Below are positions 3,888 through 33,332 of a stretch of 35,814 nt of DNA, one piece after another. The stretch comes from Escherichia phage P88. Each line of letters starts with the position of its first letter. The stretch's first letter is position 1. The DNA lies in the sequence record NC_026014.1. One strand, given 5' to 3'. The notes under the pieces were generated by a model. It saw nothing but the letters and a program-made list of their open reading frames with translations. It did no database searches and was not told where the DNA came from. The position numbers and the translations under genes are program-made.

Positions 3888-4087
3888 ACAAAAAGACCTG
3901 GTTTCGCGCATACATGTGGGCGCTGGTATGCGTCATCGTCTCTCTCATTCTGTATGCAGGACTACTCCCCCGAATGATTTCATCAGACAGCTCCTTCCTG
4001 GTATTGCTGGGCATTTTCATTGCCATGCTGTACCCGGCAGGCGTTGTTCGCCTTTTCAGTAAGTACATCAAGGAAATCAAACAATGA
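3884..4087 (+). CDS. Small two-TM membrane protein, likely partner of the downstream SPFH protein
   Basis: 67 aa with two hydrophobic helices (WALVCVIVSLILYAGLL and FLVLLGIFIAMLYPAGVV); stop overlaps the SPFH gene start. Confidence 0.6.
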   Translation: MNKKTWFRAYMWALVCVIVSLILYAGLLPRMISSDSSFLVLLGIFIAMLYPAGVVRLFSKYIKEIKQ

Positions 4088-4914
4088 AGAAATTCAAACT
4101 CTTTCAGATTCTCCCGCTTTTTGCCGCCATCCTGCTGGTTGGCTGCGATCGCGTTGAGCCAGGTAATGTGGGCATCAAAGTCAACAAGCTGGGCGACGAC
4201 AAAGGCGTTGGCGAAGTGGTTGGCGTTGGCCGCTACTGGACTGGCTGGAATACAGAGGTTTACATCTTCCCGACCTTCAAACAAATGAAGACCTACGATG
4301 AGCCGTTCAGCTTCCAGATGAGTGACGGCACAACCATCGGCTATCACATCGGCGTGGCTTACAAGGTTGATCCATCCAAAGTTACCACAGTGTTTCAGAC
4401 CTACCGCAAAGGCGTGGATGACATTACCGACACTGACCTGCGCCAGAAGATCGCCGATGCACTCAACCGACTGGCCAGCAAAATGACCACCGATAAGTTT
4501 ATCGACGGTGGTAAGTCTGAACTGCTGGATTCAGCACTTAAAGATATTCAGGAAGAGATGACCCCCATCGGCATTCAGGTCATGAGCCTCTCTTATGTCG
4601 GTAAACCGGAATATCCGCCAACCGTTATCGACAGCATTAACGCCAAAGTCACGGCAAACCAGAAAACCCTGCAACGCGAACAGGAAGTCAAGCAACGCGA
4701 AGCTGAAGCCAACATGTTGCGCGCAGAAGCTGCCGGACAGGCTGATGCCATTCGCACAAAAGCCCAGGCTGAAGCTGACGCCATTCGTTTACGCGGTGAA
4801 GCTCTGCGCCAGAATCCCGGCGTTATGGAGCTGGAAGCAATCAACAAATGGAACGGCACGCTGCCGCAATACATGACCAGCAATACTGCTGTTCCGTTTG
4901 TTCCGGTGAAGTAA
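4084..4914 (+). CDS. SPFH/Band-7 (stomatin/prohibitin/HflC-like) lipoprotein
   Basis: 276 aa; lipoprotein signal with lipobox LLVGC; SPFH-like core; Ala/Glu-rich C-terminal coiled coil typical of Band-7 proteins. Confidence 0.85.
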   Translation: MKKFKLFQILPLFAAILLVGCDRVEPGNVGIKVNKLGDDKGVGEVVGVGRYWTGWNTEVYIFPTFKQMKTYDEPFSFQMSDGTTIGYHIGVAYKVDPSKVTTVFQTYRKGVDDITDTDLRQKIADALNRLASKMTTDKFIDGGKSELLDSALKDIQEEMTPIGIQVMSLSYVGKPEYPPTVIDSINAKVTANQKTLQREQEVKQREAEANMLRAEAAGQADAIRTKAQAEADAIRLRGEALRQNPGVMELEAINKWNGTLPQYMTSNTAVPFVPVK

Positions 4915-5956: not shown

Positions 5957-8779
5957 ATGACGGCAGAGTACATCAGGGACTGGCAACAACCGCGCCACGC
6001 AGTGGGGCGTGAAGGAACGGGGATCCCCGCTCCTGAATCCGCGCTTTCCTCCTGGCTGGATGCCTACCGGGCAGAGAACGAGCGCCGCCAGGAAATGGCT
6101 GATGCGGCGTTCTCCGCCACGCCGCTGGGCAACCTGATTAATAAAAGCCTGGACGCACAGGAAAAACAGGACAAAACCATCACACTGGCAGGAGACGCCA
6201 GAAAACAGGCACGCGGCGCGGTGGATGAAGCCATGGCCTCGCTGCGCCTGCTGCCGTCCTATCTGCGCGATCCGCTTATTCGCCACCTCTCCTTCCTTCG
6301 CAAAAAACAGGAAGCCGATCGCCGGAAAGGCAAAAAGAGCTGGCAGGCGGAACGCTATGCACGCGGAACCCTGCGCAAAATATTCGAACGTCTGGATCGC
6401 ACTGACGGACGCTGGCTGACACCGGGTTATCGCTCCCTTGCCGGACGCGAACGCCTGGACGATTTGCTTTACCTGCCGCAGCTCAACAAACACCAGATAC
6501 AGACGCTGGCCACCATGACGGCAGCGATGTTCAGCAGCACCTTCGAAAAACTCTGCGATGGCTTTGGCGCGACTGATGGCGAACTGACCATGGATGTAAC
6601 GCTGAAGGCGTATCAGATGCTGGCCCGCATGGCGTTACACCTGCACGCTATGCCTCCACATTATGACGCACTGACAACAGACAAAGACCGGAGGAACGAA
6701 CCGGACACAGAGCTGCTGCCGGGCGCAATCCTTCGCCTGACCTGTGCGGAATGGTGGAAACGCAAACTGTGGCTGTTACGTTGCGAGTGGCGGGAAGAAC
6801 AACTCCGCGCCGCCTGTCTGGTTTCCAGAAAAACATCACCCTATCTGAGCCAGGACGCGTTAAGCGAGTTTCGCGCACACCGCGAGAAAACACGCGATTT
6901 CCTGAAAAGTTTCATGCTGGAAAATGAAGACGGGTTCACGATTGATCTCGAGACGGTGTATTACGCGGGAGTAAGTAACCCGGTTCACCGTAAGGCAGAA
7001 ATGATGGCCACCATGAAGGGGCTGGAACTTCTGGCCGAAGCCCGTGGCGACAGAGCGGTGTTTCTGACTGTCACCTGCCCGTCAAAATACCACGCAACAA
7101 CGGAGAACGGTCATCCGAATCCCAAATGGAACGGGGCCACCATGCGCGACTCCAGCGATTACCTGGTTAACACGTTTTTTGCGACGGTCCGCAAAAAACT
7201 GAACCGCGACGGTCTTCGCTGGTATGGCATCCGCACGGTGGAGCCTCACCATGACGGCACTGTGCACTGGCATATGATGGTCTTTGCACATCCGGACGAG
7301 ATTGAAACCATCGTGTCCCACGTCTGCGATATTGCCATTCAGGAAGACCGCCACGAGCTGGGCGATGATATTACTCCGCGTTTTAAAGCGGAGTACGTCG
7401 ACGGCTCAAAAGGCACGCCAACCAGCTACATCGCCACCTACATCGGAAAGAACCTGGACAGCCGCGCCGTGGATGGCATCGACCCGAAAACGGGCAAGCC
7501 ACGCGTTGACCACGAAACCGGAAAATCAATGGCCGAGAGCGTGGAGCGCGCCATCGGCTGGGCGCGCCTTCACCGGGTCCGCCAGTTCCAGTTCTTTGGC
7601 ATCCCCTCCCGTCAGGTGTGGCGTGAACTGCGCCGCCTTGCCAGCCAGATGGCACGCAACCCGGAAGGCCCGCAACGGCTGAAGGATGACGCAATGGATG
7701 CAGTGCTCGCTGCCGCTGATGCCGGGTGTTTTGCCTCCTACATTGAAAAACAGGGCGGCGTACTTGTTCCACGCCAGGACTACCTGATTCGCACCGCCTA
7801 CGACCTCGCAGATGAGCTGAACGATTACGGCGAACAGAGCGTACAGATTTACGGGATCTGGTCACCACTCATCGGGGAGTCTTCCCGTGTGTGCACACAT
7901 CCGGATAACTGGAAGCTGGTAAGACGTAAACCGGAAGCGGAAGACAGCGCCCGCGAAAATGGTTTTGACCTTCAGGGCGGCCCTGCCGCCCCTTGGACTC
8001 GTGGCAATAACTGTCCCCGTGTACAGGAAACGGACAACAACGGGACAGAACAGCCGGAAGAACGGCCAGCACCGTGGCCGCAGCTCCCTGACGGCGTTGA
8101 AGTGAACGAATGGATGCGCTCACTGAAACGGCACGAACGCCGGGCGCTGATGCGTTCGCTTCGTGACAAACAGGCAAAAAACAGCAGTGATGAAATGCAG
8201 AGCTGGACACAGAGCCGCAAACAGCAGCGGCCTTTGCCTGATAACCACGAATTACTCGCTAAAGAATGGCGGGAGTCTGCTGAATCTCTCGGCCTGCATA
8301 TCGGTGAACAACAGATGCAGCACCTGTTACGGGGCGGCAGTCTGTACGTTGACGGCAGCATCATTGCACCGCAGGGATTTGAAATTGTACGCAAACCGGA
8401 TACCCGCCCGGACAGCCGAATCACGCAGCTCTGGCAGCGCCTGAGCCGTAATCATGGCGTAAGCAGCACGGAGATCCGCCATAACCCGGTCGCCAGCTAT
8501 CTGGCACAGCTGGGGGCATCAGACCCTGAAGCCGCCGCACGCCTGGCATCCACACTTCAGCAGGACCAGAACACCATGAAAACACCCGTTACCGTGCTTT
8601 CTGACATGCTGCGCGCCATCCGCGACGCAGAGCACGCACAGAGAATCAGTGAAACCACTGAACGCGCCAGCCGCAAAGCAGACCTGCTGCGGGGTGGCCT
8701 GACCAGTGGAAACAAAAAACAGACAGAAACGGGACTCACGAATCCCGCAAATGAGCAAAAAACGCGCAGCGATATATGA
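5957..8779 (+). CDS. A: Rolling-circle replication initiator endonuclease (P2 gpA-like)
   Basis: 940 aa; HUH-type motif DGTVHWHMMVFAH and twin-tyrosine motif TPTSYIATYIGKN; long low-complexity C-terminal extension versus P2 A (761 aa). Confidence 0.9.
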   Translation: MTAEYIRDWQQPRHAVGREGTGIPAPESALSSWLDAYRAENERRQEMADAAFSATPLGNLINKSLDAQEKQDKTITLAGDARKQARGAVDEAMASLRLLPSYLRDPLIRHLSFLRKKQEADRRKGKKSWQAERYARGTLRKIFERLDRTDGRWLTPGYRSLAGRERLDDLLYLPQLNKHQIQTLATMTAAMFSSTFEKLCDGFGATDGELTMDVTLKAYQMLARMALHLHAMPPHYDALTTDKDRRNEPDTELLPGAILRLTCAEWWKRKLWLLRCEWREEQLRAACLVSRKTSPYLSQDALSEFRAHREKTRDFLKSFMLENEDGFTIDLETVYYAGVSNPVHRKAEMMATMKGLELLAEARGDRAVFLTVTCPSKYHATTENGHPNPKWNGATMRDSSDYLVNTFFATVRKKLNRDGLRWYGIRTVEPHHDGTVHWHMMVFAHPDEIETIVSHVCDIAIQEDRHELGDDITPRFKAEYVDGSKGTPTSYIATYIGKNLDSRAVDGIDPKTGKPRVDHETGKSMAESVERAIGWARLHRVRQFQFFGIPSRQVWRELRRLASQMARNPEGPQRLKDDAMDAVLAAADAGCFASYIEKQGGVLVPRQDYLIRTAYDLADELNDYGEQSVQIYGIWSPLIGESSRVCTHPDNWKLVRRKPEAEDSARENGFDLQGGPAAPWTRGNNCPRVQETDNNGTEQPEERPAPWPQLPDGVEVNEWMRSLKRHERRALMRSLRDKQAKNSSDEMQSWTQSRKQQRPLPDNHELLAKEWRESAESLGLHIGEQQMQHLLRGGSLYVDGSIIAPQGFEIVRKPDTRPDSRITQLWQRLSRNHGVSSTEIRHNPVASYLAQLGASDPEAAARLASTLQQDQNTMKTPVTVLSDMLRAIRDAEHAQRISETTERASRKADLLRGGLTSGNKKQTETGLTNPANEQKTRSDI

Positions 8780-8824
8780 AGCGCGCACAAAACAGGCAAA
8801 AACGGGATTTCAGAATCCCGTAAA
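8727..8824. promoter_or_regulatory. Two related palindromic sites upstream of parM (candidate parC-like centromere/operator)
   Basis: AAACGGGACTCACGAATCCCGCAAA and AAACGGGATTTCAGAATCCCGTAAA, each with CGGGA(T)/(A)TCCCG arms, about 70 bp apart, overlapping the 3' end of A. Confidence 0.3.
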
Positions 8825-8855
8825 CGATTAATTAATCAACATAAGGAAAAGCGAC

Positions 8856-9815
8856 ATGAAAATTTGTATCGACGACGGCTCCACCAACATCAAGCTGGCA
8901 TGGACTGAGAACGGCGAACGCCGCAACGCCATCAGCCCGAACAGCTTCAAGTCGGAATGGTCTGCGCCGTTCGGCGGCACGCAGCCCGCGAACTACATGC
9001 TTGATGGCGTGCGCTATGGTTTTGATCCGGTCAGCGATCGCTTTGTCCAGACGACCGACACGCAATACCAGTACAGCGATGTAAATGTCATTGCCATTCA
9101 TCACGCGCTGGTCAAATCAGGCATCACGCCACAGGAGGTGGATGTGGTTGTCACCCTGCCACTGAGCGAGTATTTCGACACAAACGCACAGCCGGACATG
9201 GCCAACATCAACCGCAAAAAAGCGAACGTTATGCGCCCGGTGGAGTACCAGAACGGCGAAGCATTCACTATCCGTAACGTGCGGGTTATGCCTGAATCCA
9301 TTCCGGCTGGCTTTAAAGCACTGGCTGACATGAGTCCGTTTGAATCCCTGCTGATTGTGGATTTAGGTGGAACCACGCTGGATGTGGCAAAGGTTCAGGG
9401 ACAACTGGCAGGTATCAGCCAGGTGTTTTGCGATCCACACGTAGGCGTTTCCCTGATGGCCGATGCAGTACTGTCGGTGATGGCCACTAACGGTATGCGT
9501 ACCAGTCACCACATCGCCAATACCATTATCGAACATCGCCATGATGAAGCCTGGCTGCGCCAGCACATCCACAATGACGCGCATTACGCCAGCCTGATGG
9601 CGGTTATTCGTGAAAAGGAAGAAACACTGAAACAACGCGTGATCCGCGCGCTGGCGGGTTTTTCGGGTTACGGGCGGGTGATGGTTGTCGGTGGCGGGGC
9701 GGAGATTGTGGCACCCGCTATCCGCGAAGCCTGCGGAGTTAATGCGACTTTCATCGCGGACGGGGTGCCACAGTTTGCTCTGGTTAATGGGCTGTACGCA
9801 ATGGACAAGGAGTAA
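8856..9815 (+). CDS. parM: ParM/StbA-like actin-type ATPase (type II partition motor)
   Basis: 319 aa; N-terminus MKICIDDGSTNIKLAW...ISPNSFKSEW co-linear with plasmid R1 ParM (MLVFIDDGSTNIKLQW...ISPNSFKREW, from memory); also QYSDVNV, IVDLGGTTLDV, VMVVGGGAE. Confidence 0.9.
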   Translation: MKICIDDGSTNIKLAWTENGERRNAISPNSFKSEWSAPFGGTQPANYMLDGVRYGFDPVSDRFVQTTDTQYQYSDVNVIAIHHALVKSGITPQEVDVVVTLPLSEYFDTNAQPDMANINRKKANVMRPVEYQNGEAFTIRNVRVMPESIPAGFKALADMSPFESLLIVDLGGTTLDVAKVQGQLAGISQVFCDPHVGVSLMADAVLSVMATNGMRTSHHIANTIIEHRHDEAWLRQHIHNDAHYASLMAVIREKEETLKQRVIRALAGFSGYGRVMVVGGGAEIVAPAIREACGVNATFIADGVPQFALVNGLYAMDKE

Positions 9816-9819
9816 ACCA

Positions 9820-10131
9820 ATGACGACACCAACCAGACGGATAAGTTTCTATCTGAAGCCCGCCGCCGTCAAGAACGAAGGCGAAGCATGCGCCTGGCTG
9901 GACAGCCTTACACCAGAAGCCCGCAAAAGCGGCCAACGTGTGGCTTTTCTGGCCGGGCTGGCACTTCTGAAAATGAATCCGGCAGAGGCTTACCGACTGG
10001 CTGCATGGGCTGACGATGAGGCGTTATCAGTGACACAAACCAGGACAGAACGCCCCGCGTCACAGCCAGTACCAACCACACAGATAACCAGTCGGATGGC
10101 CGGAAATATCAGGGCGTTATTTCCCGAATAA
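9820..10131 (+). CDS. parR: ParR/StbB-like centromere-binding adaptor
   Basis: 103 aa from the ATG 4 nt after the parM stop; RRISFYLKP...LDSLTP...RVAFLAGLALLKMNP parallels R1 ParR (RRTIAFKLNP...LDSIPQ...AALTAGLALYRQDP, from memory). Confidence 0.7.
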   Translation: MTTPTRRISFYLKPAAVKNEGEACAWLDSLTPEARKSGQRVAFLAGLALLKMNPAEAYRLAAWADDEALSVTQTRTERPASQPVPTTQITSRMAGNIRALFPE

Positions 10132-10194
10132 CACAACATCAGGGCGCATCCGCCCTGATGACTTTAATCCGGGAACATAAACAAGGGGGACACA

Positions 10195-10527
10195 ATGCAA
10201 CACATTGACAGAGAAAAAGCGCAGCGACTGATTGAGCGGATGGAAGCGCTGGCGAAAGAAGAAAATGTCAACATCCAAAAAATAGCTGAATGTGGCCAGA
10301 TAGTTCTTCGTCGTGAAAAAGACCTCAAACAACTGATGTCTGGCGAAACCAGCAAAACATGGACTTCAGGCGAGGAGACGATTTATTGCAGCTTCTGCAA
10401 TAAATCTCAGTACGAAGTCACAAAGGTGATTGCCGGACCGTCTGTTTACATCTGCAATGAGTGCGTGGATTTGTGCAATGAAATTATCAGGAGAGAAGTG
10501 ACAGACAAAAAGGGAAAAAACGCATGA
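10195..10527 (+). CDS. Small protein with C-terminal ClpX-type C4 zinc-binding domain
   Basis: 110 aa; C-terminal [39 protein letters not shown] has the C-x2-C-x18-C-x2-C spacing and roughly 80% identity to the E. coli ClpX N-domain as I recall it; no AAA+ module. Confidence 0.8.
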
Positions 10528-10862
10528 ACAGAAAACAAAAACAAGAGTTGAAATACTTTTTACGTAAAGAAATTGCCAGGCTTGAAGATGCAGAATCACA
10601 ATCATCAGAAATTCCGTTCGGAATGGATATCAACGACGCCCGTATGCTCCAGGCATACCGCATAGCTCAGGCTGCACTACAGGCAAAACCGTCAGATGGA
10701 CTGGTTAGAGCAGTACGATTCTATGAACTGGTAAAGCGTGAGAATCCGCCAGCCGAAACCGGAGCATGGAAAGACGCTGTTGACTGGGTACTCAAAGAGG
10801 CTTGTCAGGTTGTAAACACTGGCATCAAAGGAGACCTAGCCCAGCCTGCATCAAAGCTATAG
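10524..10862 (+). CDS. Hypothetical protein, last gene of the cargo cluster
   Basis: 112-aa ORF overlapping the previous stop; followed by a terminator. Confidence 0.55.
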
Positions 10863-10873
10863 AAATGAGCCAA

Positions 10874-10900
10874 AACGCCCTCTTCCAGGGCGTTTATTTC
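10874..10900 (+). terminator. Rho-independent terminator
   Basis: Stem AACGCCCT / AGGGCGTT with 5-nt loop, then TATTTC. Confidence 0.6.
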
Positions 10901-11353
10901 AATGCACAATAGTGCACAAATTTGCACAATTTTTTTGAACGAATTTTTGCCCTTCCGGCCCGCGTGACAGTTGGATCCGTCAAGGATCCGTGCGTGCACA
11001 AAAAAACGCGCTTTTTCTGCGCGCAGGTGACGGGGGAACAGCCCGCGTTTCAGGGGGTAAATAGCGTTCCCTTAACGATGTCGCAGCGACACGACAGAAT
11101 GGCCGTATTTCTCACGCTGAGCGTGAAAAATACGTGAGGGATTCTGGTTTGATGGGGTGAAAGGTAAGGCCGTCAAAATCGCACTGAGGCGGCGAGAACA
11201 TGCAGTCAGCGCAGTGGGATTGCGTAAGAATCTGACCGTCGATGATGGCAATAAGCAGGAAAGCGTCGTGAAATTATCTGACTGATACAGGAGCTGGAGA
11301 GTCGGGGCATAAATTTTTTATGCCCCGGCGAAGCAGCAGACAAGCGAAGCGCG
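10901..11353. other. Putative cos / packaging region
   Basis: About 450 bp non-coding gap just beyond the 3' end of portal gene Q, where cos lies in P2; three TGCACAA repeats, a GGATCCGT direct repeat and a 10-bp perfect hairpin near 11306..11328. The cohesive-end sequence itself was not identified. Confidence 0.35.
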
Positions 11354-12400
11354 TCAGGATGTGGGCTGGGTATCTAACAGTGCGTAAGGGTTAAAGCGGA
11401 TCACCTCTTCGCCAAGCCAGTCATTGATGTGCTTCATGGCCTCCATGACGGGCATCAGCTCGTTAATTGCGTAAACCCGCGCGGCCTTCTCCACATCACC
11501 AAACGCACTTTTTTCGCCCGGCATCGCCCCCATCAGTTGCGGCGGAACGCGGTGCGCAGCCAGCACATCATCACGGGATGCCGCCTTAACATTCATGAAC
11601 TCATCCTTTGCGGTGATCTGCTGGAACGGCAAAATTTGCACCCCCTCTTTGCCCCCGTTGGGCGCATGAATGAGCACGTTTTTAAACGCACCACCACCAC
11701 GTGCCCCCTGTAGCGTTTCTTTCAGGGAGTCCATGCTTTCGCGGTTTACCTGCGCTGCACCGATGTAGATGATGCACCCGGCGTGGGATCCGTTGTCGTA
11801 GTACAGTTTTCTGAACATGTCCGCCGAATGAGAAAGGCTGGCCGAGAGTAATGCGCCAAGATATTCCGGCATGCCGTAGATTTCCTGGTTAATATCCGGA
11901 TTCATCAGGTGGCACACTTTGCCAGGACGAAACTGAAACGCGTCCTTGCCATCCTGCACATACCACCATGATTCAAGATCGCTTCCGCGTCGCATGTATT
12001 TCGCCAGGGCGTGCCGTAATTTAAGCGGTTCGCCGAGCATATTGCTCCGAAGCTCAAGGAATGCGTTACCGAACACAAACCAGTCCAGCGCCAGCGCCGA
12101 GAAATCCTGCCGGGAAAGCAGCGGGTGCGGAATATAGCAGCCGAGCAATACATTGCGCTTAAAGTAAAGCGCAGACTGATGCCAGGACGTTTGCCGGGCA
12201 GCTCTTGCCAGACCGTACCAGTCCACCGGGGTTTCATACCACCGCCCGTTATCAGCACAGTACATATTGTCCAGCAGGTCATGCCCGGTCAGGCGATAAG
12301 GCCCATCAAATGTGAATGCACTGAGCGATGATTCTTTCCTGAGCGCATCAGCGAGATCAATGCGTGAACTCATGCGCACTTTTTTATTTTTTCTGCTCAT
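11354..12400 (-). CDS. Q: Portal protein (P2 gpQ-like)
   Basis: 348 aa, P2 Q-like size; divergent from the O-N-M-L operon and immediately downstream of P, as in P2. Confidence 0.93.
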   Translation of the reverse strand: MSRKNKKVRMSSRIDLADALRKESSLSAFTFDGPYRLTGHDLLDNMYCADNGRWYETPVDWYGLARAARQTSWHQSALYFKRNVLLGCYIPHPLLSRQDFSALALDWFVFGNAFLELRSNMLGEPLKLRHALAKYMRRGSDLESWWYVQDGKDAFQFRPGKVCHLMNPDINQEIYGMPEYLGALLSASLSHSADMFRKLYYDNGSHAGCIIYIGAAQVNRESMDSLKETLQGARGGGAFKNVLIHAPNGGKEGVQILPFQQITAKDEFMNVKAASRDDVLAAHRVPPQLMGAMPGEKSAFGDVEKAARVYAINELMPVMEAMKHINDWLGEEVIRFNPYALLDTQPTS

Positions 12401-14151
12401 CAGAACTCCATAACCGTGAAACGCTCGTTTTCTCCTTCGCCGCCAATCGGTTCGTTAATGACAGCAAGCATGGTTGCCCACGCAAGGTCACCGTGGCTGA
12501 TCCCCCTCGCTCGGTCCGTTTCGTAAGTGATAAAGCCGCCCGGTGTTTTCACCTTACGCACGGCGTTAAAGGCCGCGACCAGCTCGCGTTCGGCACGATC
12601 GTATTCCCACCGCCCGGCACGCATTATTTGCAGCATTTTCAGTACCAGCGACCGTTTTGATGACAGCGTGAAGGTGTACGGAATAGCAGCAGGGAAAAAC
12701 CGTTTCACTATCTGATAAACGGCATCCCCGTGCCCGCCAGTCGCATCAATGCCGATGTGTTCCACGTTGTAGCGACACGTGAACTCTTCAATGACTCTGG
12801 CCTGTTCTTCAAACTCCAGCCCCTGAACGCGTCGCGTCTCCACCGTTCGAAAACGGCCACCAGGAACAGCCGGAGGAACCACCACGGACACCGCGCCGCT
12901 GTCGCCGTTTCCACTGCTGCCGTTTGCGTCATACCCAATCCATACCGGACGATTCCCCATCGGGCGGGGAGCAAAAGGTTTCCAGTCTTTCCAGTCGTCG
13001 TATCCATCAACACCGCAGCCAATCAGGATATTCAGGTTAAATGCCGATTCCCCTTCGCGGACAAACTCACACATATAGAGATTGCGGAACTCGTCTTCGG
13101 TGTTTTCATCACGAATTTCATCAATATCGGTGTGTTTCCAGCCGTGATTAACCACATCTTCCAGCGTGACAATTTGCCGCCACGTCCGGTCGGGGCAGAT
13201 AAGTCCGTTATGCAGCGTTTTCCAGCCCACAGAAAAACGCTGGCGTTTATGCGCGGCCTTTTTCTCGTTCCAGCGGTCGCCGTTCCAATAGACGTATGCC
13301 TCGTGCGTTTCGGTGGATGGCGTGGAGAAGTAGGTGCGCCGCAGTCCGCTGAGGGTTGCCATAGCGCCAGCCACCTTGCGCAGTTCAGCAAAGCGACTGA
13401 CCCAGAAAAATTCATCAAAATAAAAATTGCCTGTGTAGGACTGTGCCGTCGCAGCAGAAGTACCGAGAAAATGCAGTTCTGCGCCGTTGGAGAGGATGAT
13501 TTTATCGCCCCCTTTCAGCTCCACATCAACTTCAGCCGCGGCCTTCTGAATAATGCTTTTAAACTGGAACGCCTGACGACGCGACGCAGACAAAAAAATC
13601 TGGTTACGCTGGTAAGGTTGTGCCACATCGTCACGCAGCGCCATCAGCAGTGCTTCCTGTGCAAAATACCAGGTCGCCCCAATCTGTCGGGATTTCAGGA
13701 TCATCCTGTTACGTATCCCGGCTTCACTGCAAAGGGTCAGGGAGTCAAACCAGCCCCGCTGATGCCACTCCAGCCTGCTGATGATTTTTTCCCGCAGTGC
13801 GGCAATCTGCTCCGGCGTGAAATGATTTTTAAGTTTTTTTGCCCGGCCTTTCTTTCCTGTGGCCGTCGCATCCGGCTGGCCATCATGCAGTTTTTTAAGC
13901 TGCCGGGTCAGCAGGTCTATTTCCTTAAAGTCACCACCTGTTTTATTCTGTTTTTCAGTAAGCTGGATGAGGCGCGCATCGATGGACTGCGTGACACGCT
14001 GCACGGGTGGCGTTTCATCCCACTGGTCGCGTTTTTTCCACGCATAAATCGTGTTCGGGTTTATTCCCATCAGACGTGATATTTCTGCGGGCGGATAACC
14101 CTGCCAGTAAAGTTGCCGCGCACGCTGGCGCACAAAAGCGTCCTGAATCAT
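12400..14151 (-). CDS. P: Terminase large (ATPase) subunit (P2 gpP-like)
   Basis: 583 aa; N-terminal MIQDAFVRQRARQLYWQGYPPAEISRLMGINPNTIYAWKKRDQWDE HTH-like start typical of P2 P; overlaps Q by 1 nt. Confidence 0.93.
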   Translation of the reverse strand: MIQDAFVRQRARQLYWQGYPPAEISRLMGINPNTIYAWKKRDQWDETPPVQRVTQSIDARLIQLTEKQNKTGGDFKEIDLLTRQLKKLHDGQPDATATGKKGRAKKLKNHFTPEQIAALREKIISRLEWHQRGWFDSLTLCSEAGIRNRMILKSRQIGATWYFAQEALLMALRDDVAQPYQRNQIFLSASRRQAFQFKSIIQKAAAEVDVELKGGDKIILSNGAELHFLGTSAATAQSYTGNFYFDEFFWVSRFAELRKVAGAMATLSGLRRTYFSTPSTETHEAYVYWNGDRWNEKKAAHKRQRFSVGWKTLHNGLICPDRTWRQIVTLEDVVNHGWKHTDIDEIRDENTEDEFRNLYMCEFVREGESAFNLNILIGCGVDGYDDWKDWKPFAPRPMGNRPVWIGYDANGSSGNGDSGAVSVVVPPAVPGGRFRTVETRRVQGLEFEEQARVIEEFTCRYNVEHIGIDATGGHGDAVYQIVKRFFPAAIPYTFTLSSKRSLVLKMLQIMRAGRWEYDRAERELVAAFNAVRKVKTPGGFITYETDRARGISHGDLAWATMLAVINEPIGGEGENERFTVMEF

Positions 14152-22561: not shown

Positions 22562-24856
22562 ATGAGTACCACAACACGAAAATTTAAAACCGTTATCACC
22601 GATACGGGTGCAAAAAAATTAGCTCAGGCAGCCGCGCCAGATGGTAAGCCTGTCCGCCTGACTCATATGGCAGTGGGCGACGGTGGCGGCACGTTGCCCA
22701 CACCAGACAGTAAGCAGACCCGTCTGGTGCATGAGGTGTGGCGACATACTGTTAATCGCGTCATCCTGGACGCAACACATCAGAACCGCATTATTGCGGA
22801 GCTGGTTATTCCTCCTGAAACGGGCGGATTCTGGATCCGGGAAATTGGTGTATTTGATGAGCACGGCGATTTAATCGCGGTGGGAAATACTGCCGAAAGT
22901 TACAAGCCAGCCGTTGCCGAAGGGTCCGGTCGTGCACAAACATTTCGCACCATTCTGACCGTATCCAGCACTGCCACCGTGGCGCTTACCGTGGATAACA
23001 CCATGGTGATGGCCACAGTGGATTACGTGGATGACAAACTGAAAGAGCATGAACAGTCACGACGTCACCCGGACGCCTCGCTGACCGCAAAAGGCTTTGT
23101 TCAACTCAGTAGCGCCACTAACAGCGTGTCTGAAACGCAGGCTGCAACGCCGAAAGCAGTAAAGGCCGCGTATGATCTTGCTAACGGTAAATATACTGCG
23201 CAGGATGCCAGCACGACGCGAAAAGGCCTTGTCCAGCTCAGTAGCGCCACCAACAGCACGTCTGAAACGCAGGCTGCAACGCCGAAAGCAGTAAAGGCCG
23301 CGTATGACCTTGCTAACGCAAAATATACCGCTCAGGACGCTACGACGGCACAAAAAGGGATAGTCCAGCTCAGTAGTGCCACCAACAGCACGTCTGAAAC
23401 ACTGGCCGCGACATCGAAAGCGGTTAAGGCGGTAATGGATGAAACGAACAAGAAAGCGCCCTTAAACAGTCCTGCGTTGACCGGAACGCCAACAACGCCA
23501 ACTGCGCGACAGGGAACGAATAATACCCAAATCGCAAGCACGGCTTTCGTTATGGCTGCGATTGCCGCCCTTGTAGATTCGTCACCTGACGCACTGAATA
23601 CGCTGAACGAGTTAGCGGCGGCGCTGGGAAACGACCCGAATTTTGCGACCACCATGACTAACGCGCTTGCGGGTAAGCAACCGAAAGATGCCACCCTGAC
23701 GGCGCTGGCCGGGCTTGCTACTGCGGCAGACAAGTTTCCGTATTTTACGGGGAATGATGTCGCCAGCCTGGCAACCCTGACAAAAGTCGGGCGGGATATT
23801 CTTGCGAAATCGACCGTTGCTGCCGTTATCGAATACCTCGGTTTACAGGAAACGGTAAACAGGGCTGGTAACGCCGTGCAAAAAAATGGCGATACCTTAT
23901 CCGGTGGGCTTACTTTTGAAAACGACTCAATCCTTGCCTGGATTCGAAATACTGACTGGGCAAAGATTGGTTTTAAAAATGATGCCGATAGCGATACTGA
24001 TTCATACATGTGGTTTGAAACAGGCGACAACGGCAATGAATATTTCAAATGGAGAAGCAAACAAAGCACCACAACAAAAGACCTGATGAATCTTAAATGG
24101 GATGCTTTGTCTGTTCTTGTTAAAGCCCTTTTCAGCAGTGAAGTAAAAATATCGACAGTCAATGCACTGAGGATATTTAATTCATCTTTTGGTGCCATTT
24201 TTCGCCGTTCTGAAGAATGCCTGCATATCATCCCTACACGAGAGAATGAGGGGGAAAATGGCGATATAGGGCCGCTACGCCCCTTTACGCTTAATCTCAG
24301 AACTGGTCGCATAAATATGGGGCATGGTCTGGATGTTACAGGAGATATAACAACTAACGCATGGGTGTACGCAAACCGCCTTGCAATTAACAGCAGCACA
24401 GGCATGTGGATTCATATGCGTGACCAGAATGTTATTTTTGGACGTAATGCGGTATCCACTGATGGTGCTCAGGCTTTGCTCCGTCAGGACCATGCCGACC
24501 GCAAATTTATGATTGGCGGTCTGGGAAATAAGCAATTTGGCATCTACATGATTAATAACTCAAGGACAGCCAATGGCACCGATGGTCAGGCGTACATGGA
24601 CAATAACGGTAACTGGCTTTGCGGTGCGCAAATTATTCCCGGAAATTATGGCAATTTTGACTCACGCTATGTGAGAGATGTCCGACTTGGCACACGTGTT
24701 GTTCAATTGATGGCGCGTGGAGGGCGTTATGAAATAGCCGGACACGCACTTACCGGATTAAGGATTATTGGTGAAGTTGATGGCGATGATGAAGCTATCT
24801 TCAGGCCGATACAAAAATACATCAATGGCATATGGTATAACGTCGCACAGGTGTAA
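22562..24856 (+). CDS. H: Tail fibre protein H; C-terminal third lies in an invertible segment
   Basis: 764 aa; three tandem 44-aa fibre repeats; crossover site at residues 422-430 (VIEYLGLQE); C-terminal ...FRPIQKYINGIWYNVAQV. Confidence 0.93.
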   Translation: MSTTTRKFKTVITDTGAKKLAQAAAPDGKPVRLTHMAVGDGGGTLPTPDSKQTRLVHEVWRHTVNRVILDATHQNRIIAELVIPPETGGFWIREIGVFDEHGDLIAVGNTAESYKPAVAEGSGRAQTFRTILTVSSTATVALTVDNTMVMATVDYVDDKLKEHEQSRRHPDASLTAKGFVQLSSATNSVSETQAATPKAVKAAYDLANGKYTAQDASTTRKGLVQLSSATNSTSETQAATPKAVKAAYDLANAKYTAQDATTAQKGIVQLSSATNSTSETLAATSKAVKAVMDETNKKAPLNSPALTGTPTTPTARQGTNNTQIASTAFVMAAIAALVDSSPDALNTLNELAAALGNDPNFATTMTNALAGKQPKDATLTALAGLATAADKFPYFTGNDVASLATLTKVGRDILAKSTVAAVIEYLGLQETVNRAGNAVQKNGDTLSGGLTFENDSILAWIRNTDWAKIGFKNDADSDTDSYMWFETGDNGNEYFKWRSKQSTTTKDLMNLKWDALSVLVKALFSSEVKISTVNALRIFNSSFGAIFRRSEECLHIIPTRENEGENGDIGPLRPFTLNLRTGRINMGHGLDVTGDITTNAWVYANRLAINSSTGMWIHMRDQNVIFGRNAVSTDGAQALLRQDHADRKFMIGGLGNKQFGIYMINNSRTANGTDGQAYMDNNGNWLCGAQIIPGNYGNFDSRYVRDVRLGTRVVQLMARGGRYEIAGHALTGLRIIGEVDGDDEAIFRPIQKYINGIWYNVAQV
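23090..23440 (+). repeat. Tandem in-frame repeat, about 2.7 copies of 132 bp (44 aa) inside H
   Basis: Repeat unit KG(F/L/I)VQLSSATNS(V/T)SETQAATPKAVKAAYDLAN..YTAQDA occurs at residues 177, 221 and 265. Confidence 0.75.
23826..23851. repeat. Left crossover site of the invertible segment (gix/hix/cix-like, 26 bp)
   Basis: TTATCGAATACCTCGGTTTACAGGAA; near-exact inverted repeat of the site at 26897..26922 (23 of 26 after reverse-complementing). Confidence 0.75.
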
Positions 24857-24859
24857 ATT

Positions 24860-25387
24860 ATGCAGCATTTAAAAAATATTAAGTCTGGAAATCCAAAAAC
24901 AAAAGAACAATATCAGCTAACAAAGAATTTTGATGTTATCTGGTTATGGTCCGAAGACGGAAAAAACTGGTATGAGGAAGTGAAAAACTTTCAGCCAGAC
25001 ACAATAAAGATTGTTTACGATGCAAATAATATTATTGTCGCCATCACCAAAGATGCCTCCACGCTTAACCCTGAAGGTTATAGCGTCGTTGAGGTTCCTG
25101 ATATTACAGCTAATCGTCGTGCTGATGATTCCGGTAAGTGGATGTTTAAGGACGGAGCTGTGGTTAAACGGATTTATACGGCAGACGAGCAACAACAACA
25201 GGCCGAATCACAAAAGGCCGCGTTACTTTCCGAAGCAGAAAACGTTATTCAGCCACTGGAACGCGCTGTCAGGCTGAATATGGCGACGGATGAGGAACGC
25301 GCACGACTGGAGTCATGGGAACGCTATAGTGTTCTGGTCAGCCGTGTGGATACGGCAAATCCTGAATGGCCACAAAAGCCTGAATAA
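24860..25387 (+). CDS. G: Tail fibre assembly chaperone (P2 gpG-like)
   Basis: 175 aa immediately after H; N-terminal [24 protein letters not shown]... of the Tfa family. Confidence 0.9.
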
Positions 25388-25415
25388 AAATTAAGGCCCG
25401 ATAGCGGGCCTTGTT

Positions 25416-25949
25416 TCATTCTGGTTGTTCTGGAAACGTTACTGGCAGGCTGGAGGTGTCTGTGGATTCGACCTTCTGCGCATAGAGCATCCACTCGGTT
25501 AATTTTTGTTTATTCTCGTCGGGAATGATACCCAGCCGTAGCTGTGAGTCCCATAGCTGGGTTTTATCCCTGACAAGTTGCAACAGGCTTTGCTTTTCAT
25601 TCTCTGCCTGCTGCCTCTGTTCCTCCTCGGTATAAGTTCGCTTTATCACTACGCCATCTTTGAACATCCATTTACCCGAAATATCAGCCCGGCGATTTGC
25701 TGTAATATCAGGTAATTCAACGACGCTTGCGCCTTCCGGATTAATTGCTGAAACATCCTTTTCAATACAAATAATAACGCCGTTATGGTCATAGACCATT
25801 TTCAAAGTGTCTGGCTGGAAATTCTTTTGTTCCTCATACCAGTTTTTTCCATCATCTGAATAAAGCCATTTGATGTTAAATTGCTTTGTTAGCTGGTATT
25901 GCTCTTTTGTTTTAGGGTTGCCAGCAGTAATGTTTTTTAAGTGCATCAT
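25416..25949 (-). CDS. Alternative tail fibre assembly chaperone (G')
   Basis: 177 aa; N-terminal half almost identical to G, divergent C-terminal half; convergent with G. Confidence 0.9.
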   Translation of the reverse strand: MMHLKNITAGNPKTKEQYQLTKQFNIKWLYSDDGKNWYEEQKNFQPDTLKMVYDHNGVIICIEKDVSAINPEGASVVELPDITANRRADISGKWMFKDGVVIKRTYTEEEQRQQAENEKQSLLQLVRDKTQLWDSQLRLGIIPDENKQKLTEWMLYAQKVESTDTSSLPVTFPEQPE

Positions 25950-25951
25950 CG

Positions 25952-26914
25952 TTAAATACTCCCCGCGTTATACCACGTCCCATTAATGCAATACTGAATT
26001 GGCCTTGCCTGAGTTGTATCAATTAATTCATCACGGTTTCCGTTAACTGAACCCGTAACGACATAACCTGACCTGTCAGACCAGCCGGGGCCATTCCATG
26101 TCTGAACAGATGACAGACCGCCAAGGCGAATACCTGTAATAAACCTTGAGTTACATTCTGCCTGCGTGTATGCACCAACATCTCCCGCAGAGGGTTTGCG
26201 GGTCGTGGTGTAAAACTCTGACCAGTCAGCCTCAAATCCATAACCATCACGCGCTGAACGATAAAAAATACCGCCGTTCCTGTAATTCACGCGGAACTGT
26301 ACAGCAGGGCAGCTCCCCGTATTCATATTGAAGTGGAGGATTAATGTCGATGCGCCACCAATGTTTGCGTTATAGACCCCGCTATTCCAGTTCCAGCCAA
26401 CAGCTTTATCATTTCCGACAGTGCTTCCTGTTTGCCCTAAAGCAAATGCAGGTTGTTGATTTTTCGTGTTGTAGTCTCGTCGCCAGCCAGGAGCATAAGC
26501 ATCACCATGATTAATATAAGTGAATTGAGCGTTAGTAATTCCGCCACCGCTGGACGTGCTCGGCGTGGTAACGCGTATGGTCATTGCGCCGCGAGTGCCA
26601 ATAACTTCCACCACAGCACCTGCAAGACAAATATTTCCGCAACCTGTATCTGTAATGACCTTATTATTTGCATAAGCCCATGAGCCTTTGCACATCCAGT
26701 AAGGATGGTTAAATGCTCCCTGACTCTCCAGCCACGAAATAAATTGCGCGGTTGTCCAGACCTGACTATCGCCACCAATATTCAGCCATGCGCTATATGC
26801 GCGGCAGGCCCCAATATTTTTGGTGAAGGTATCTTTTCCCGGAATATCTGCGCCGTTCTGGTTTTTCTGTAATGCGCCAGAAGCCTGATTTACCGTTTCC
26901 TGTAAACCGAGGTT
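25952..26914 (-). other. Alternative tail-fibre C-terminal segment (Hv'), start-less, fused to H after inversion
   Basis: Minus-strand frame is open from the right crossover site; my translation reads NLGLQETVNQASGALQKNQNG... across the site, matching H at YLGLQETVNRAGNAVQKNG; ends ...RPIQYCINGTWYNAGSI like H. Confidence 0.75.
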
Positions 26915-26922
26915 TTAGATAA
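26897..26922. repeat. Right crossover site of the invertible segment (gix/hix/cix-like, 26 bp)
   Basis: TTCCTGTAAACCGAGGTTTTAGATAA, about 55 bp upstream of the invertase start; close to the Gin/Hin site consensus as I recall it. Confidence 0.75.
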
Positions 26923-26976
26923 TGGCCGTTTCTGACCTGCATGGCATGATTTACGCTTTTGGACGGGAGATTCAGC

Positions 26977-27564
26977 GTGCTGATTGGCTATGTAAGGGTA
27001 TCAACAAATGACCAGAATACAGACCTGCAACGAAACGCTCTTGTTTGTGCAGGATGTGAACAAATATTTGAAGATAAATTAAGCGGGACAAAGACAGACC
27101 GACCGGGATTAAAACGCGCTTTAAAGCGCCTTCAAAAAGGTGACACGCTGGTTGTCTGGAAACTGGATCGCCTCGGGCGAAGCATGAAACATCTGATTTC
27201 TCTCGTCGGGGAACTACGGGAGCGAGGGATTAATTTTCGCAGTCTGACCGACAGCATAGATACATCTTCTCCAATGGGGCGTTTTTTCTTCCACGTGATG
27301 GGTGCCCTGGCTGAAATGGAACGTGAATTAATTGTTGAACGTACACTGGCCGGACTGGCAGCAGCGCGCGCACGGGGGCGCACAGGCGGACGTCGCCCGA
27401 AGCTGACAAAAGAACAGCATGAGCAAATAGCAAGGCTGATTAAAAACGGTCACGACAGAAAACAACTGGCAATAATTTACGGCATTGGTACATCGACGAT
27501 TTATCGTTACCACCCCGCAGGAGAATCAAGCGGAACAATAGAGAAGAGTCAGAAAACAAAATAA
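26977..27564 (+). CDS. Serine DNA invertase (Gin/Cin/Pin/Hin family)
   Basis: From the GTG start the product begins MLIGYVRVSTNDQNTDLQRNAL... (catalytic Ser in VRVSTNDQ), near-identical to the Gin/Pin N-terminus as I recall; C-terminal HTH. The track ORF starts at a TTG at 26959. Confidence 0.9.
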   Translation: MLIGYVRVSTNDQNTDLQRNALVCAGCEQIFEDKLSGTKTDRPGLKRALKRLQKGDTLVVWKLDRLGRSMKHLISLVGELRERGINFRSLTDSIDTSSPMGRFFFHVMGALAEMERELIVERTLAGLAAARARGRTGGRRPKLTKEQHEQIARLIKNGHDRKQLAIIYGIGTSTIYRYHPAGESSGTIEKSQKTK

Positions 27565-27591
27565 CCGCTAATCTGACCATTAGCGGTTTTT
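27565..27591. terminator. Bidirectional intrinsic terminator between invertase and the tail operon
   Basis: Stem CCGCTAAT / ATTAGCGG, T-run on the plus side and A-rich tract upstream (U-run for the minus-strand transcript). Confidence 0.65.
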
Positions 27592-27599
27592 GTGTTAAA

Positions 27600-28094
27600 T
27601 CAGAACAGCCCTTTAACTGAACTGGCCGCGCTGTTAAGGGATGATGTCACCTTATCTTTGAAGCCGGACAGCATATCGCTGAACGATGAGGATTGCAGGC
27701 GCTCCCGCAAATCCTCATCACAGCGTTCAAGGGTCAGTGAAAATTCTATCTTTTTCGCCTTACCGTAGCGATCAAACTCGGAACGGGTCGTATTCGTTCC
27801 GGTCAGGACATACATGCCGTAAATCTGCCCGACGCCATCAATCAAAGGCCAGGGTCGTCCTGTATACGCCTGCGTGGTCAGCAGCGACAGCGACACTTCG
27901 CCACCTGTAATTTCAGGATAAAGCACACCAGAAAGAACGATGCGATCATCACCTGCACCGATATACTGCCAGCTTGCTGAACGGTTAACGCGTTCATTTT
28001 TCACATGCCGCCAGCTTTTGTTTTGCTGTAACTGCTGATGCGGCAGCGTGCGCAGCTCAAAAACAAACATGCCGTAGATCATCATCATGGCCAT
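27600..28094 (-). CDS. U: Tail protein U (P2 gpU-like)
   Basis: 164 aa; FVFELRTLPHQQLQQ...YPEITGGEVSL...PLIDGVGQIYGMYV...KIEFSLTL pattern of P2 U. Confidence 0.88.
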   Translation of the reverse strand: MAMMMIYGMFVFELRTLPHQQLQQNKSWRHVKNERVNRSASWQYIGAGDDRIVLSGVLYPEITGGEVSLSLLTTQAYTGRPWPLIDGVGQIYGMYVLTGTNTTRSEFDRYGKAKKIEFSLTLERCDEDLRERLQSSSFSDMLSGFKDKVTSSLNSAASSVKGLF

Positions 28095-33175: not shown

Positions 33176-33332
33176 AGCTTCAGCCCCTTGTATCCGTTAA
33201 ATGATTCGGCAACAATCATCACCCACCACGCGCGTAATCTCACCCCTGCGCCGTTCTCCCGCCACGGCGACAACAAAAAGCAGTAACCCCCTCCGCACGC
33301 ACATGCGACCATGCCGCACAGGGAGGGAACAG
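33176..33332. promoter_or_regulatory. Divergent intergenic region between FI and D (expected late promoters)
   Basis: 157-bp gap between divergently transcribed FI and D; D has a GGGAGGGA SD. No promoter consensus verified. Confidence 0.3.

Follow-up and report, generated by a model that had tools for sequence, protein, structure and literature searches.

Introduction

What occupies the interval between the replication gene and the packaging end of a P2-like prophage, and does it act as one unit? We address this question for Escherichia phage P88 (sequence record NC_026014.1; the whole stretch of 35,814 nucleotides is referred to as the window), in which positions 8780-11353, between the replication gene gpA and the portal gene, harbour parM, parR, a gene for a 110-amino-acid (aa) protein with a ClpX-type zinc-binding domain (ZBD), and a 112-aa open reading frame (ORF). 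An initial annotation had read these genes as a four-gene cargo cluster in the hotspot that carries tin and old in P2, possibly an exclusion, defence or regulatory module. Here, we find that the four genes are very probably a composite of a fixed partition cassette and independent cargo, because parMR is constant, the homology with sibling loci breaks at the parR stop codon and the GC content differs between the two halves. To the statement as a whole, i.e. a fixed partition cassette followed by an independent cargo whose active component is a ClpX-ZBD decoy, we assign a probability of roughly 55%.

A fixed partition cassette and a variable slot

We compared the interval with phage records, with 5,426 complete E. 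coli genomes and with 80 viral loci from IMG/VR. The viral loci were fetched with a ParM query, so that the presence of ParM is given by construction and the near-identity of the gene and the state of its neighbours are the informative features. Many of these loci are near-duplicates from E. coli isolates, and the presence of ParR and of the ZBD gene was counted in the 52 loci that span the complete interval.

Between gpA and the portal gene, we found exactly four ORFs, all on the plus strand. The first (8856-9815) encodes ParM with both of its Pfam domains (PF06406, E-value 1.8e-82; PF21523, E-value 1.3e-68), and the second (9820-10131) encodes a 103-aa ParR of the StbB family (PF10784, E-value 4e-24; phrog_2515, E-value 1e-57). 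These are followed by the gene for the 110-aa ClpX-ZBD protein (10195-10527; PF06689, E-value 8e-18, with a four-cysteine (C4) zinc finger at residues 64-99) and by the 112-aa ORF (10524-10862), which matches phrog_26213 and phrog_660 and no Pfam family at E-values up to 0.1. We place the start of parR at the ATG at 9820 and not at the TTG at 9685 of the mechanically called ORF, because homologues are annotated with 103-104 aa and the PHROG alignment begins at residue 46 of the longer ORF.

Is this entire interval exchangeable cargo? At the nucleotide level, parM is 97-99% identical throughout the 80 related viral loci, 49 of the 52 complete intervals contain ParR, and all phage records with the same 3' end of gpA also carry parM. 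A cargo cluster of four genes is therefore not borne out, and parMR behaves as a stable lineage feature of the P88-like branch. According to an earlier survey, roughly one in four P2-like phages carries the partition system (Rousset et al. 2022, PMC9122126).

The variable slot begins at the parR stop codon and reaches from 10132 to ~10900. On its left side, the homology with siblings breaks at 10131-10189, i.e. at the parR stop or at most ~60 nt beyond it, and on its right side at 10888-10904. The GC content is 0.53-0.57 across parMR as compared to 0.46-0.48 over 10001-11000. At least 20 kinds of content were found in the slot, the largest of ~3.7 kb, and some loci have no called ORF there. 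The sibling cassettes recognised by PADLOC are IetA, AbiLi/AbiLii, an RmrA-like protein with helix-turn-helix (HTH) and peptidase parts, PDC-M04A (DUF3800) and PDC-M11A. By inspection, IetA adjoins a 734-aa protein with a subtilisin-like (S8) region and PDC-M11A adjoins a small ASCH-like protein. Other slots hold DUF4760-type membrane proteins, as annotated, or a Fic/Doc toxin together with a Phd-like antitoxin, as judged by inspection of the sequences alone. The expected cassette-like variability across related prophages is thus evident, and the interval is indeed the gpA-cos/gpQ hotspot of P2, the same locus as that of Rousset et al. (2022, PMC9122126). Judged by location and by replacement with unrelated genes, the stretch from 10132 to ~10900 is hotspot cargo and parMR is not. 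In other words, the idea of slot cargo stands for the ZBD gene and the 112-aa ORF and fails for parMR, a lineage feature that comes close to the conserved core genes which the initial annotation had itself set against its reading. The slot, which starts after parR, is a genuine defence and accessory hotspot.

How much of this has been described before? Rousset et al. analysed this very locus and distinguished 1,650 gene arrangements among 18,150 loci (PMC9122126). As far as the article and its supplements were accessible, Table S5A already lists the arrangement 'StbA + Plasmid_stab_B + zf-C4_ClpX + hypothetical' and, in addition, variants with Ead_Ea22, with DUF4760 or with AAA/HTH_50 + Peptidase_S8, the last of which matches the IetA + S8 arrangement of the siblings. 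Within the same accessible parts, ClpX has no mention in the main text, occurs in the supplements only in this arrangement table and shows no sign of testing (PMC9122126). The hotspot, the partition cassette and the exact gene arrangement are hence already published, and the ClpX-ZBD mimic is a modestly novel, readily testable lead. For hotspot surveys, the boundary at the parR stop is of relevance, as counting everything between gpA and gpQ as content merges a conserved partition cassette with the real cargo.

The cargo resembles tin/old of P2 and the hotspot cargo of Rousset et al. in its position in the same slot by cos, in its cassette-like turnover and in being a short system with its own terminator. 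The resemblance ends at the level of the genes: scans with Pfam, PHROG, NCBIfam and PADLOC gave no tin- or old-like match for any of the four proteins, as had been anticipated, and the ZBD/112-aa cargo has neither homology to PADLOC models nor an effector domain. A further difference is that the ZBD gene also resides in 'ea'-type early accessory arrays of phage-plasmids.

A ClpX docking domain without the unfoldase

What kind of protein does the first cargo gene encode? Its 110 residues are laid out as an N-terminal helical hairpin (residues 6-48), a linker and the ZBD (~60-104). The ZBD matches PDB entries 1ovx and 2ds5 with E-values of about 1e-19, and Pfam, PDB and Foldseek comparisons all identify it as the C4 zinc-binding N-domain of ClpX. 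The AlphaFold2 (AF2) model predicts helices at residues 6-23 and 27-48, a disordered linker and the ZBD, with a predicted local distance difference test (pLDDT) score of 75. Its ZBD superposes on 2ds5 and 2ds8, the latter being the complex of the ZBD with the SspB tail, at a root-mean-square deviation of 0.6-0.9 Å and with 71-80% identity (Foldseek).

The likeness to the E. coli ClpX domain, to which the ZBD has a protein identity of ~76% with diverged synonymous sites, extends beyond the zinc ligands and the fold to the docking surface. In the family alignment, the four cysteines, F67 and I97/I98 are conserved, F67 being invariant and I97 present in at least 90% of the members. F67 and I97 correspond to Phe16 and Ile46 of ClpX, so that the Phe16/Ile46 pocket is kept. 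In ClpX, this pocket is needed for the enhancement by trigger factor via the ZBD, and SspB and RssB were reported to bind the same hydrophobic region (PMC7804408).

The phage protein differs from ClpX in its architecture. The NCBIfam clpX models match over profile positions 3-52 of about 414-418 only, with a score of 50 as compared to a cut-off of 371 bits, i.e. no AAA+ module was found. Since the AAA+ module with its ClpP-docking loops is lacking, the 110-aa protein is not a ClpX. Moreover, its ZBD is C-terminal and lies behind a helical hairpin that, by sequence comparison, is an orphan domain: a HMMER search of 1.8 billion representative proteins with this hairpin gave 11 hits, mostly fragments or family members, none of them informative.

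Was the domain recently taken from a host? Over 45 aligned residues, 31 are identical to K-12 ClpX, but no more than 62% of the nucleotides agree, and different codons encode 19 of these 31 residues. These values rule out a recent capture of host clpX. The codon divergence at identical residues therefore indicates an old divergence under purifying selection.

An accessory module of temperate phages

Is the ZBD gene bound to this locus or to its neighbours? The window allele (at least 95% nucleotide identity) is present in 112 of the 5,426 complete E. coli genomes (~2%), among them UTI89, O55:H7 CB9615 and an ST131 strain. In P88-like loci, the gene is found in 14 of 52, always as the first gene after parR and with varying downstream partners. 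Homologues of 44-52% identity occupy the same gpA-portal slot in Salmonella P2-like prophages without parMR, and homologues in the same range of identity occur in phage D6, whose record describes it via many P1-like genes, as well as in PhiR41_1 and CMS-2020a, two circular phages of ~108 kb. In Escherichia, Shigella and Salmonella, a homologue is also carried by 94 plasmids that are non-mobilizable and 89-114 kb in size; these large records are probably phage-plasmids. The neighbours of the gene in D6 and PhiR41_1 are numerous small genes of the 'ea' type, among them Ea22, eaA, eae and DUF4752, which form long arrays around it.

A functional link of the ZBD gene to parMR is ruled out by the Salmonella prophages, which have the gene in the slot without parMR. 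An obligate pairing with an Ea22-like gene is ruled out as well, given that partners vary, that the gene also occurs alone and that the Ea22-like neighbours in D6 and PhiR41_1 are unrelated to the 112-aa ORF. The ZBD gene is a self-contained accessory module of temperate enterobacterial phages, tied to neither parMR nor a fixed partner. As to an exclusion, defence or regulatory module, the setting in 'ea' arrays fits a modulation of the host at least as well as defence.

Two further occurrences were observed. The lambdoid Klebsiella phage ST846-OXA48phi9.2 (locus L092) contains at ~4001-4210 an unannotated plus-strand ORF that is ClpX-ZBD-like (41.7% identity, E-value 8e-5) and sits between cII and the replication genes, a placement that is suggestive since lambda O is a ZBD-dependent substrate of ClpXP. 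In the siblings L015 and L083, the ZBD gene is followed by a minus-strand pair that, judged by its sequence only, resembles a Fic/Doc toxin and a Phd-like antitoxin. Phd of P1 is a ClpXP substrate, and the neighbourhood in L015 and L083 may be meaningful or may be due to chance.

A proposed decoy for ClpXP and its alternatives

What could a ClpX docking domain do without its unfoldase? We propose that this protein, which has no ATPase but in which zinc ligands, fold and hydrophobic docking pocket are all retained, would act as a decoy. Either paired with itself or in a heterodimer with the ClpX ZBD, it would titrate ligands of the ClpX N-domain, among them SspB and RssB as adaptors and lambda O or MuA as substrates. 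This would selectively slow adaptor- and N-domain-dependent proteolysis by ClpXP and spare basal degradation. The beneficiaries could be unstable proteins of the prophage itself or host sigma-S levels; further possible effects would be a block of protease-triggered toxin-antitoxin defences or a hindrance of ClpX-dependent phages such as Mu.

We arrive at a decoy or anti-adaptor mechanism because the pocket residues are conserved and because there is a precedent for inhibition by the free domain (PMC7804408, PMC7226468). Indeed, purified free ZBD in trans inhibits RssB-mediated breakdown of sigma-S by ClpXP, a deletion of the ZBD leaves the degradation of ssrA-tagged substrates intact, and the isolated ZBD readily dimerises in cross-linking (PMC7226468). 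Decoy activity of the ZBD protein as such has, in our estimate, somewhat less than an even chance. We advance only tentatively the wider claim that temperate enterobacterial phages, i.e. P88-like and other P2-like prophages, P1/D6-like phages and the ~108-kb phage-plasmids, carry a dedicated mimic of the ClpX docking domain that, in the lysogen or during early infection, would reprogram in trans the substrate choice of ClpXP as a decoy or anti-adaptor. The architecture, homologies, variability and structural mimicry described above are observations, whereas the decoy activity, the expression pattern and any phenotype are inferred. Regarding the role in the phage, we favour a modulation of the host or a counter-defence over a classical defence system.

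Small accessory proteins of phages or hosts that alter the substrates of a housekeeping AAA+ protease are known. T4 PinA and T7 gp4.5 act against Lon, lambda CIII acts against FtsH, SPO1 Gp53 works with ClpC, and IraD, IraM and IraP are anti-adaptors for RssB; some of these modulators stabilise phage proteins or block a protease-triggered toxin-antitoxin defence. The ZBD protein would resemble them as a small accessory modulator, although its activity is proposed only, and it differs in being a copy of the docking domain: to our knowledge, none of PinA, gp4.5, CIII, Gp53 and the Ira proteins copies the adaptor-docking domain of the protease itself. If true, this would be the first protease modulator that acts by copying the recognition domain of the protease, and thus a new route of control by domain mimicry. 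Prophages could then tune the general stress response, the activation of toxin-antitoxin systems or the replication of other phages via ClpXP. Possible effects would be a stabilisation of sigma-S, antitoxins or phage replication proteins or a block of ClpX-dependent rivals such as Mu. The mimic is compact, and its proposed mechanism is sharply testable and has a direct biochemical precedent, the inhibition of RssB-dependent sigma-S turnover by free ZBD in vitro.

Several points weigh against the decoy. The inhibition by free ZBD in vitro needed a micromolar excess (PMC7226468). In a promoter scan, the stretch from parR to the ZBD gene was empty, and the only promoter-like site of the region lies inside the 112-aa ORF; therefore, expression of the cargo in the lysogen may depend on read-through past the hairpin that follows parR. 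The domain carries substitutions relative to E. coli ClpX at 10 of the 41 positions of its core, and the AF2 model is of moderate confidence and describes a monomer. Most of what siblings carry in the slot is defence systems, and by association this speaks for a role in defence, a reading that we rank lower. Finally, the orphan N-terminal hairpin could shift the mechanism, for example from a decoy to an adaptor that recruits substrates.

In the latter case, the ZBD would pair with the ClpX N-domain or ride on ClpX while the hairpin binds a target, so that a host or rival-phage protein is delivered to ClpXP. We regard such an adaptor as unlikely, although it would account for the presence of two domains joined by a flexible linker, like in tethered adaptors, and for the conservation of the hairpin within the family (the window protein is ~50% identical there to its homologues in D6 and PhiR41_1). 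The ZBD is also a stable dimerisation domain, as seen from the cross-linking of the isolated domain (PMC7226468), and the phage protein and ClpX agree in the hydrophobic residues of its core (V, Y, I, V, L, I, I). However, the hairpin has no homologues beyond its small family among the representative proteins searched, the dimers of the ClpX ZBD form inside the hexamer, with an exchange with free domain only presumed, and the simpler decoy model fits the same data.

Could the ZBD gene and the 112-aa gene instead form a new two-gene anti-phage system, acting by exclusion or abortive infection? Their ATGA overlap and common terminator would suit such a system, the slot is a validated defence hotspot with known systems in siblings, and in 11 of the 14 loci with a ZBD gene, the gene that follows encodes a member of the same mosaic family; Ea22-like genes are near the ZBD gene in D6 and PhiR41_1, too. 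The pairing is nonetheless loose: unrelated genes replace the partner in the remaining 3 of 14 loci, the P2-like loci of Salmonella lack the partner, six loci have the mosaic protein but no ZBD gene, and the 112-aa ORF, itself a deletion fusion, is not homologous to the Ea22-like neighbours seen in phage-plasmids. Neither protein has a nuclease, membrane segment, nucleoside triphosphatase or other effector-like domain. Running a defence-system predictor on the locus, as had been suggested, did not point to a defence function either: PADLOC-DB v2 gave no match for ParM, ParR and the ZBD protein, and its only match, which was not significant, was PDC-M28C with an E-value of 0.013 for the 112-aa protein. 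Hence, we consider a two-gene defence system improbable.

Still less probable in our view is that the zinc ribbon serves a small regulator, such as an antirepressor, as a generic finger for binding nucleic acids or proteins, with a likeness to ClpX that is only ancestral. Phages of the 186 type have regulatory genes in the gpA-cos interval, with tum of phage 186 in this region, and the ZBD-like ORF of the lambdoid Klebsiella phage in the cII-replication region would agree with a regulatory function. Yet an identity of 71-80% to ClpX despite saturated synonymous sites, together with the kept pocket, exceeds what the maintenance of a fold would need, and no LexA-box-like motif was seen upstream upon inspection of the sequence. 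That all four genes form a single cargo module with a joint exclusion or regulatory function is very improbable, since, although they are co-directional, closely spaced between gpA and cos and without a detected promoter between parR and the ZBD gene, parMR precedes at least 20 other contents and also occurs with nothing behind it, the ZBD gene is found without parMR, the GC content differs between the two halves, and the sibling homology breaks at the parR stop.

The 112-aa ORF as the remnant of a larger array

Where does the second cargo gene come from? Its start overlaps the stop of the ZBD gene (ATGA), and the two are translationally coupled. The 112-aa ORF belongs to a large mosaic family with variable N-terminal and middle parts and a near-invariant 48-aa C-terminal module, which has 31 invariant columns in the family alignment and is common to Ead/Ea22-like and many other small phage proteins. 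Lambda Ea22, for instance, was reported to be pro-lysogenic. The AF2 model of the 112-aa ORF consists of four helices (pLDDT 67), for which a Foldseek comparison with BFVD returned no match at E-values up to 0.001. The family profile found no PDB sequence at E-values up to 1 and did not match the solved C-terminal domain (CTD) of lambda Ea22 (PMC10834534).

In relation to Ead/Ea22-like proteins (PF13935), the 112-aa ORF has in common the mosaic build of a coiled-coil N-part and an exchangeable C-part, as well as the 48-aa C-module, which it shares with the PF13935 carriers P0215, P0219 and P0238. It differs in having no PF13935 match itself, in a C-module unlike the CTD of lambda Ea22, in being much shorter and in being a fusion created by deletion.

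This deletion becomes apparent upon comparison with the sibling locus L085, where the array after ParR encodes, in this order, the ZBD protein, a 104-aa protein, a protein of the XF1762 family and two proteins of 87 and 86 aa. The cargo of the window corresponds to an L085-type array minus ~1 kb. The deletion point at 10835 falls within ATCAAAGGAGA, a conserved motif at gene boundaries, which encodes an ...IKGE/D tail and contains a Shine-Dalgarno-like AAGGAG. The last eight codons of the 112-aa ORF (LAQPASKL) and the terminator derive from the last gene of the array. On this comparison, the 112-aa ORF of the window is a deletion product, and the deletion of ~1 kb relative to L085-type arrays therefore makes the cargo a shrunken 'ea-type' accessory array.

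Two observations on related sequences may be added. Even between unrelated phage records and prophages, the C-terminal module keeps ~90% of its nucleotides. The 140 nt that encode the invariant module (10695-10834) show an unusually high nucleotide identity of 88-93% across unrelated backbones, namely ~39-45-kb podophages and siphophages, the lambdoid mEp460, 77-134-kb phages and 58-kb E. coli plasmids. Protein P0133 (191 aa, 143 contigs; relatives P0130-P0136) begins like ParM and ends with the C-terminal 68 residues of the 112-aa ORF. It looks as if everything in between, from the remainder of parM through parR and the ZBD gene to the beginning of the 112-aa ORF, had been deleted.

The partition cassette and its candidate sites

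To which type does the constant half of the interval belong? ParM matches the full-length ParM of plasmid R1 (PDB 1mwk, E-value 9e-93, residues 2-316), and its sequence shows the actin-fold motifs phosphate-1 (IDDGSTNIK), phosphate-2 (DLGGTTLD) and adenosine (GGGA). The StbB-family adaptor gene parR follows immediately downstream, 4 nt after the parM stop. With a ParM ATPase that has both domains and an adjoining ParR, parM-parR is an actin-like partition cassette of the R1 type (type II, ParMRC).

The candidate centromere differs from the parC of R1. In R1, parC consists of ten 11-bp iterons and lies with the promoter upstream of parM; here, two kinds of repeats come into question, neither of which resembles a 10-iteron array. 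Upstream of parM, at the position of the R1 parC, there are two 42-nt direct repeats (family D1, 79% identity) at 8713-8754 and 8786-8827, 73 nt apart. They flank the gpA stop, copy 1 being in the 3' end and last codons of gpA and copy 2, which ends 29 nt before the parM start, in the gpA-parM spacer. Each repeat has a palindromic core, ACGGGAyT...GAATCCCG, and the palindrome pattern is found at these two sites only in the window (4 strand-matches vs 0.02 expected). The hairpin of the 42-nt repeat has a folding free energy (dG) of -10.7 with a z-score of -3.3. We regard the repeats at 8713-8827 as a candidate ParR operator or parC, and three TGCACAA repeats downstream of the cargo (10903-10932) as an alternative candidate parC.

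Two classes of ParR alleles were seen, which diverge over the C-terminal half, with upstream parM still 97-99% identical. Between the classes (loci L008, L014, L022 and L044), the first ~50 codons have 72-80% nucleotide identity and the remainder is unrelated; the second class is that of P88 and of the ST131 and O157:H7 prophages. The alleles fail as an arbiter between the two parC candidates, as the two classes share the N-terminal DNA-binding strand and have both sites in identical form.

Why would an integrating phage carry a partition cassette? In contrast to R1, the cassette resides here in a P2-family phage and not in a plasmid. Among the places in E. coli genomes that match parMR, 2,543 of 2,576 are chromosomal, and PLSDB contains 7 plasmid records with a match, one of which is a phage-sized circle. 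A stable plasmid lifestyle of this phage thus has little support. The phage-sized record, NZ_CP148288.1, is a 34,461-bp circle from an E. coli isolate from a cat, with parMR 98.3% identical; it looks like a whole phage genome and may be a P88-like phage caught as an episome. In PLSDB, it is the only record with parMR on a phage-sized replicon. Because the phage has an integrase and is nearly always integrated, the cassette would most likely act only during an episomal phase, i.e. after infection, after excision or during rare plasmid carriage.

Boundary signals and prophage setting

The four ORFs are accompanied by the hairpin and the terminator that the initial annotation had reported, and both structures fold far better than shuffled controls. 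The hairpin at 10137-10160, just 3' of parR, can form on both strands and consists of a perfect 10-bp stem with a 4-nt loop (dG -18.4 kcal/mol on the plus strand and -19.5 kcal/mol on the minus strand; z-score -5.1; 0 of 200 shuffled sequences as stable). It has no T-tract on the plus strand and a T-rich tail on the minus strand, and it is probably a bidirectional transcription stop. In some siblings, hairpins of other sequence are found at the same position after parR, and several types of cargo bring their own GC-rich hairpin.

At the right side, an intrinsic terminator on the plus strand (10873-10902) comprises a 9-bp stem at 10873-10895 followed by TTTATTTC; its stem has a dG of -14.3 and a z-score of -3.0 relative to shuffled controls. 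As the homology with siblings restarts rightward at 10888-10904, most of the terminator lies on the cargo side. The non-coding stretch between the cargo and the portal gene (10903-11353), presumed to be the cos region, is conserved, and the conservation from 10896/10903 rightward extends to P2-like prophages without parMR. The three TGCACAA repeats, in 10-bp phase, are located exactly at this right recombination boundary and mark the point where the homology with all siblings restarts. They could be a protein-binding site for ParR, a cos-binding factor or a recombination factor. An Rfam scan of 8600-11500 gave no structured RNA at E-values up to 0.1.

The window as a whole is a complete, integrated E. 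coli prophage of the P2 family that belongs to the P88-like group (genus Xuanwuvirus, family Peduoviridae; megablast). Its region around the interval is essentially identical to a prophage of E. coli ETEC1738, with 99.2% identity over 8700-11400 and 100% over 10161-10902. At the left end of the window, the minus strand encodes an integrase (108-1139) and a C-type HTH repressor (1170-1469), and Cox lies at 1578-2003. Upstream of the interval lies gpA (5957-8779; PF05840, E-value 1e-128), a protein of 940 aa in which the Pfam replication-protein domain covers residues 179-503 only, with ~440 more residues on its C-terminal side. The portal gene (11354-12400; PF04860) and the terminase gene (12400-14151), both on the minus strand, follow the interval, and gpD is found at 33201-34433.

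Two genes of the early operon, for an SPFH/Band-7 protein (4084-4914; PF01145, E-value 6e-31) and a DUF4761 protein (2041-2391; E-value 2e-69), look accessory and lie outside the classical hotspot. The region 24000-27600, of low GC content (0.41-0.49), contains a tail-fibre C-terminus, assembly genes on both strands and, at 26959-27564 within the tail-fibre region, a serine invertase of the Hin/Cin type; it looks like an invertible host-range segment.

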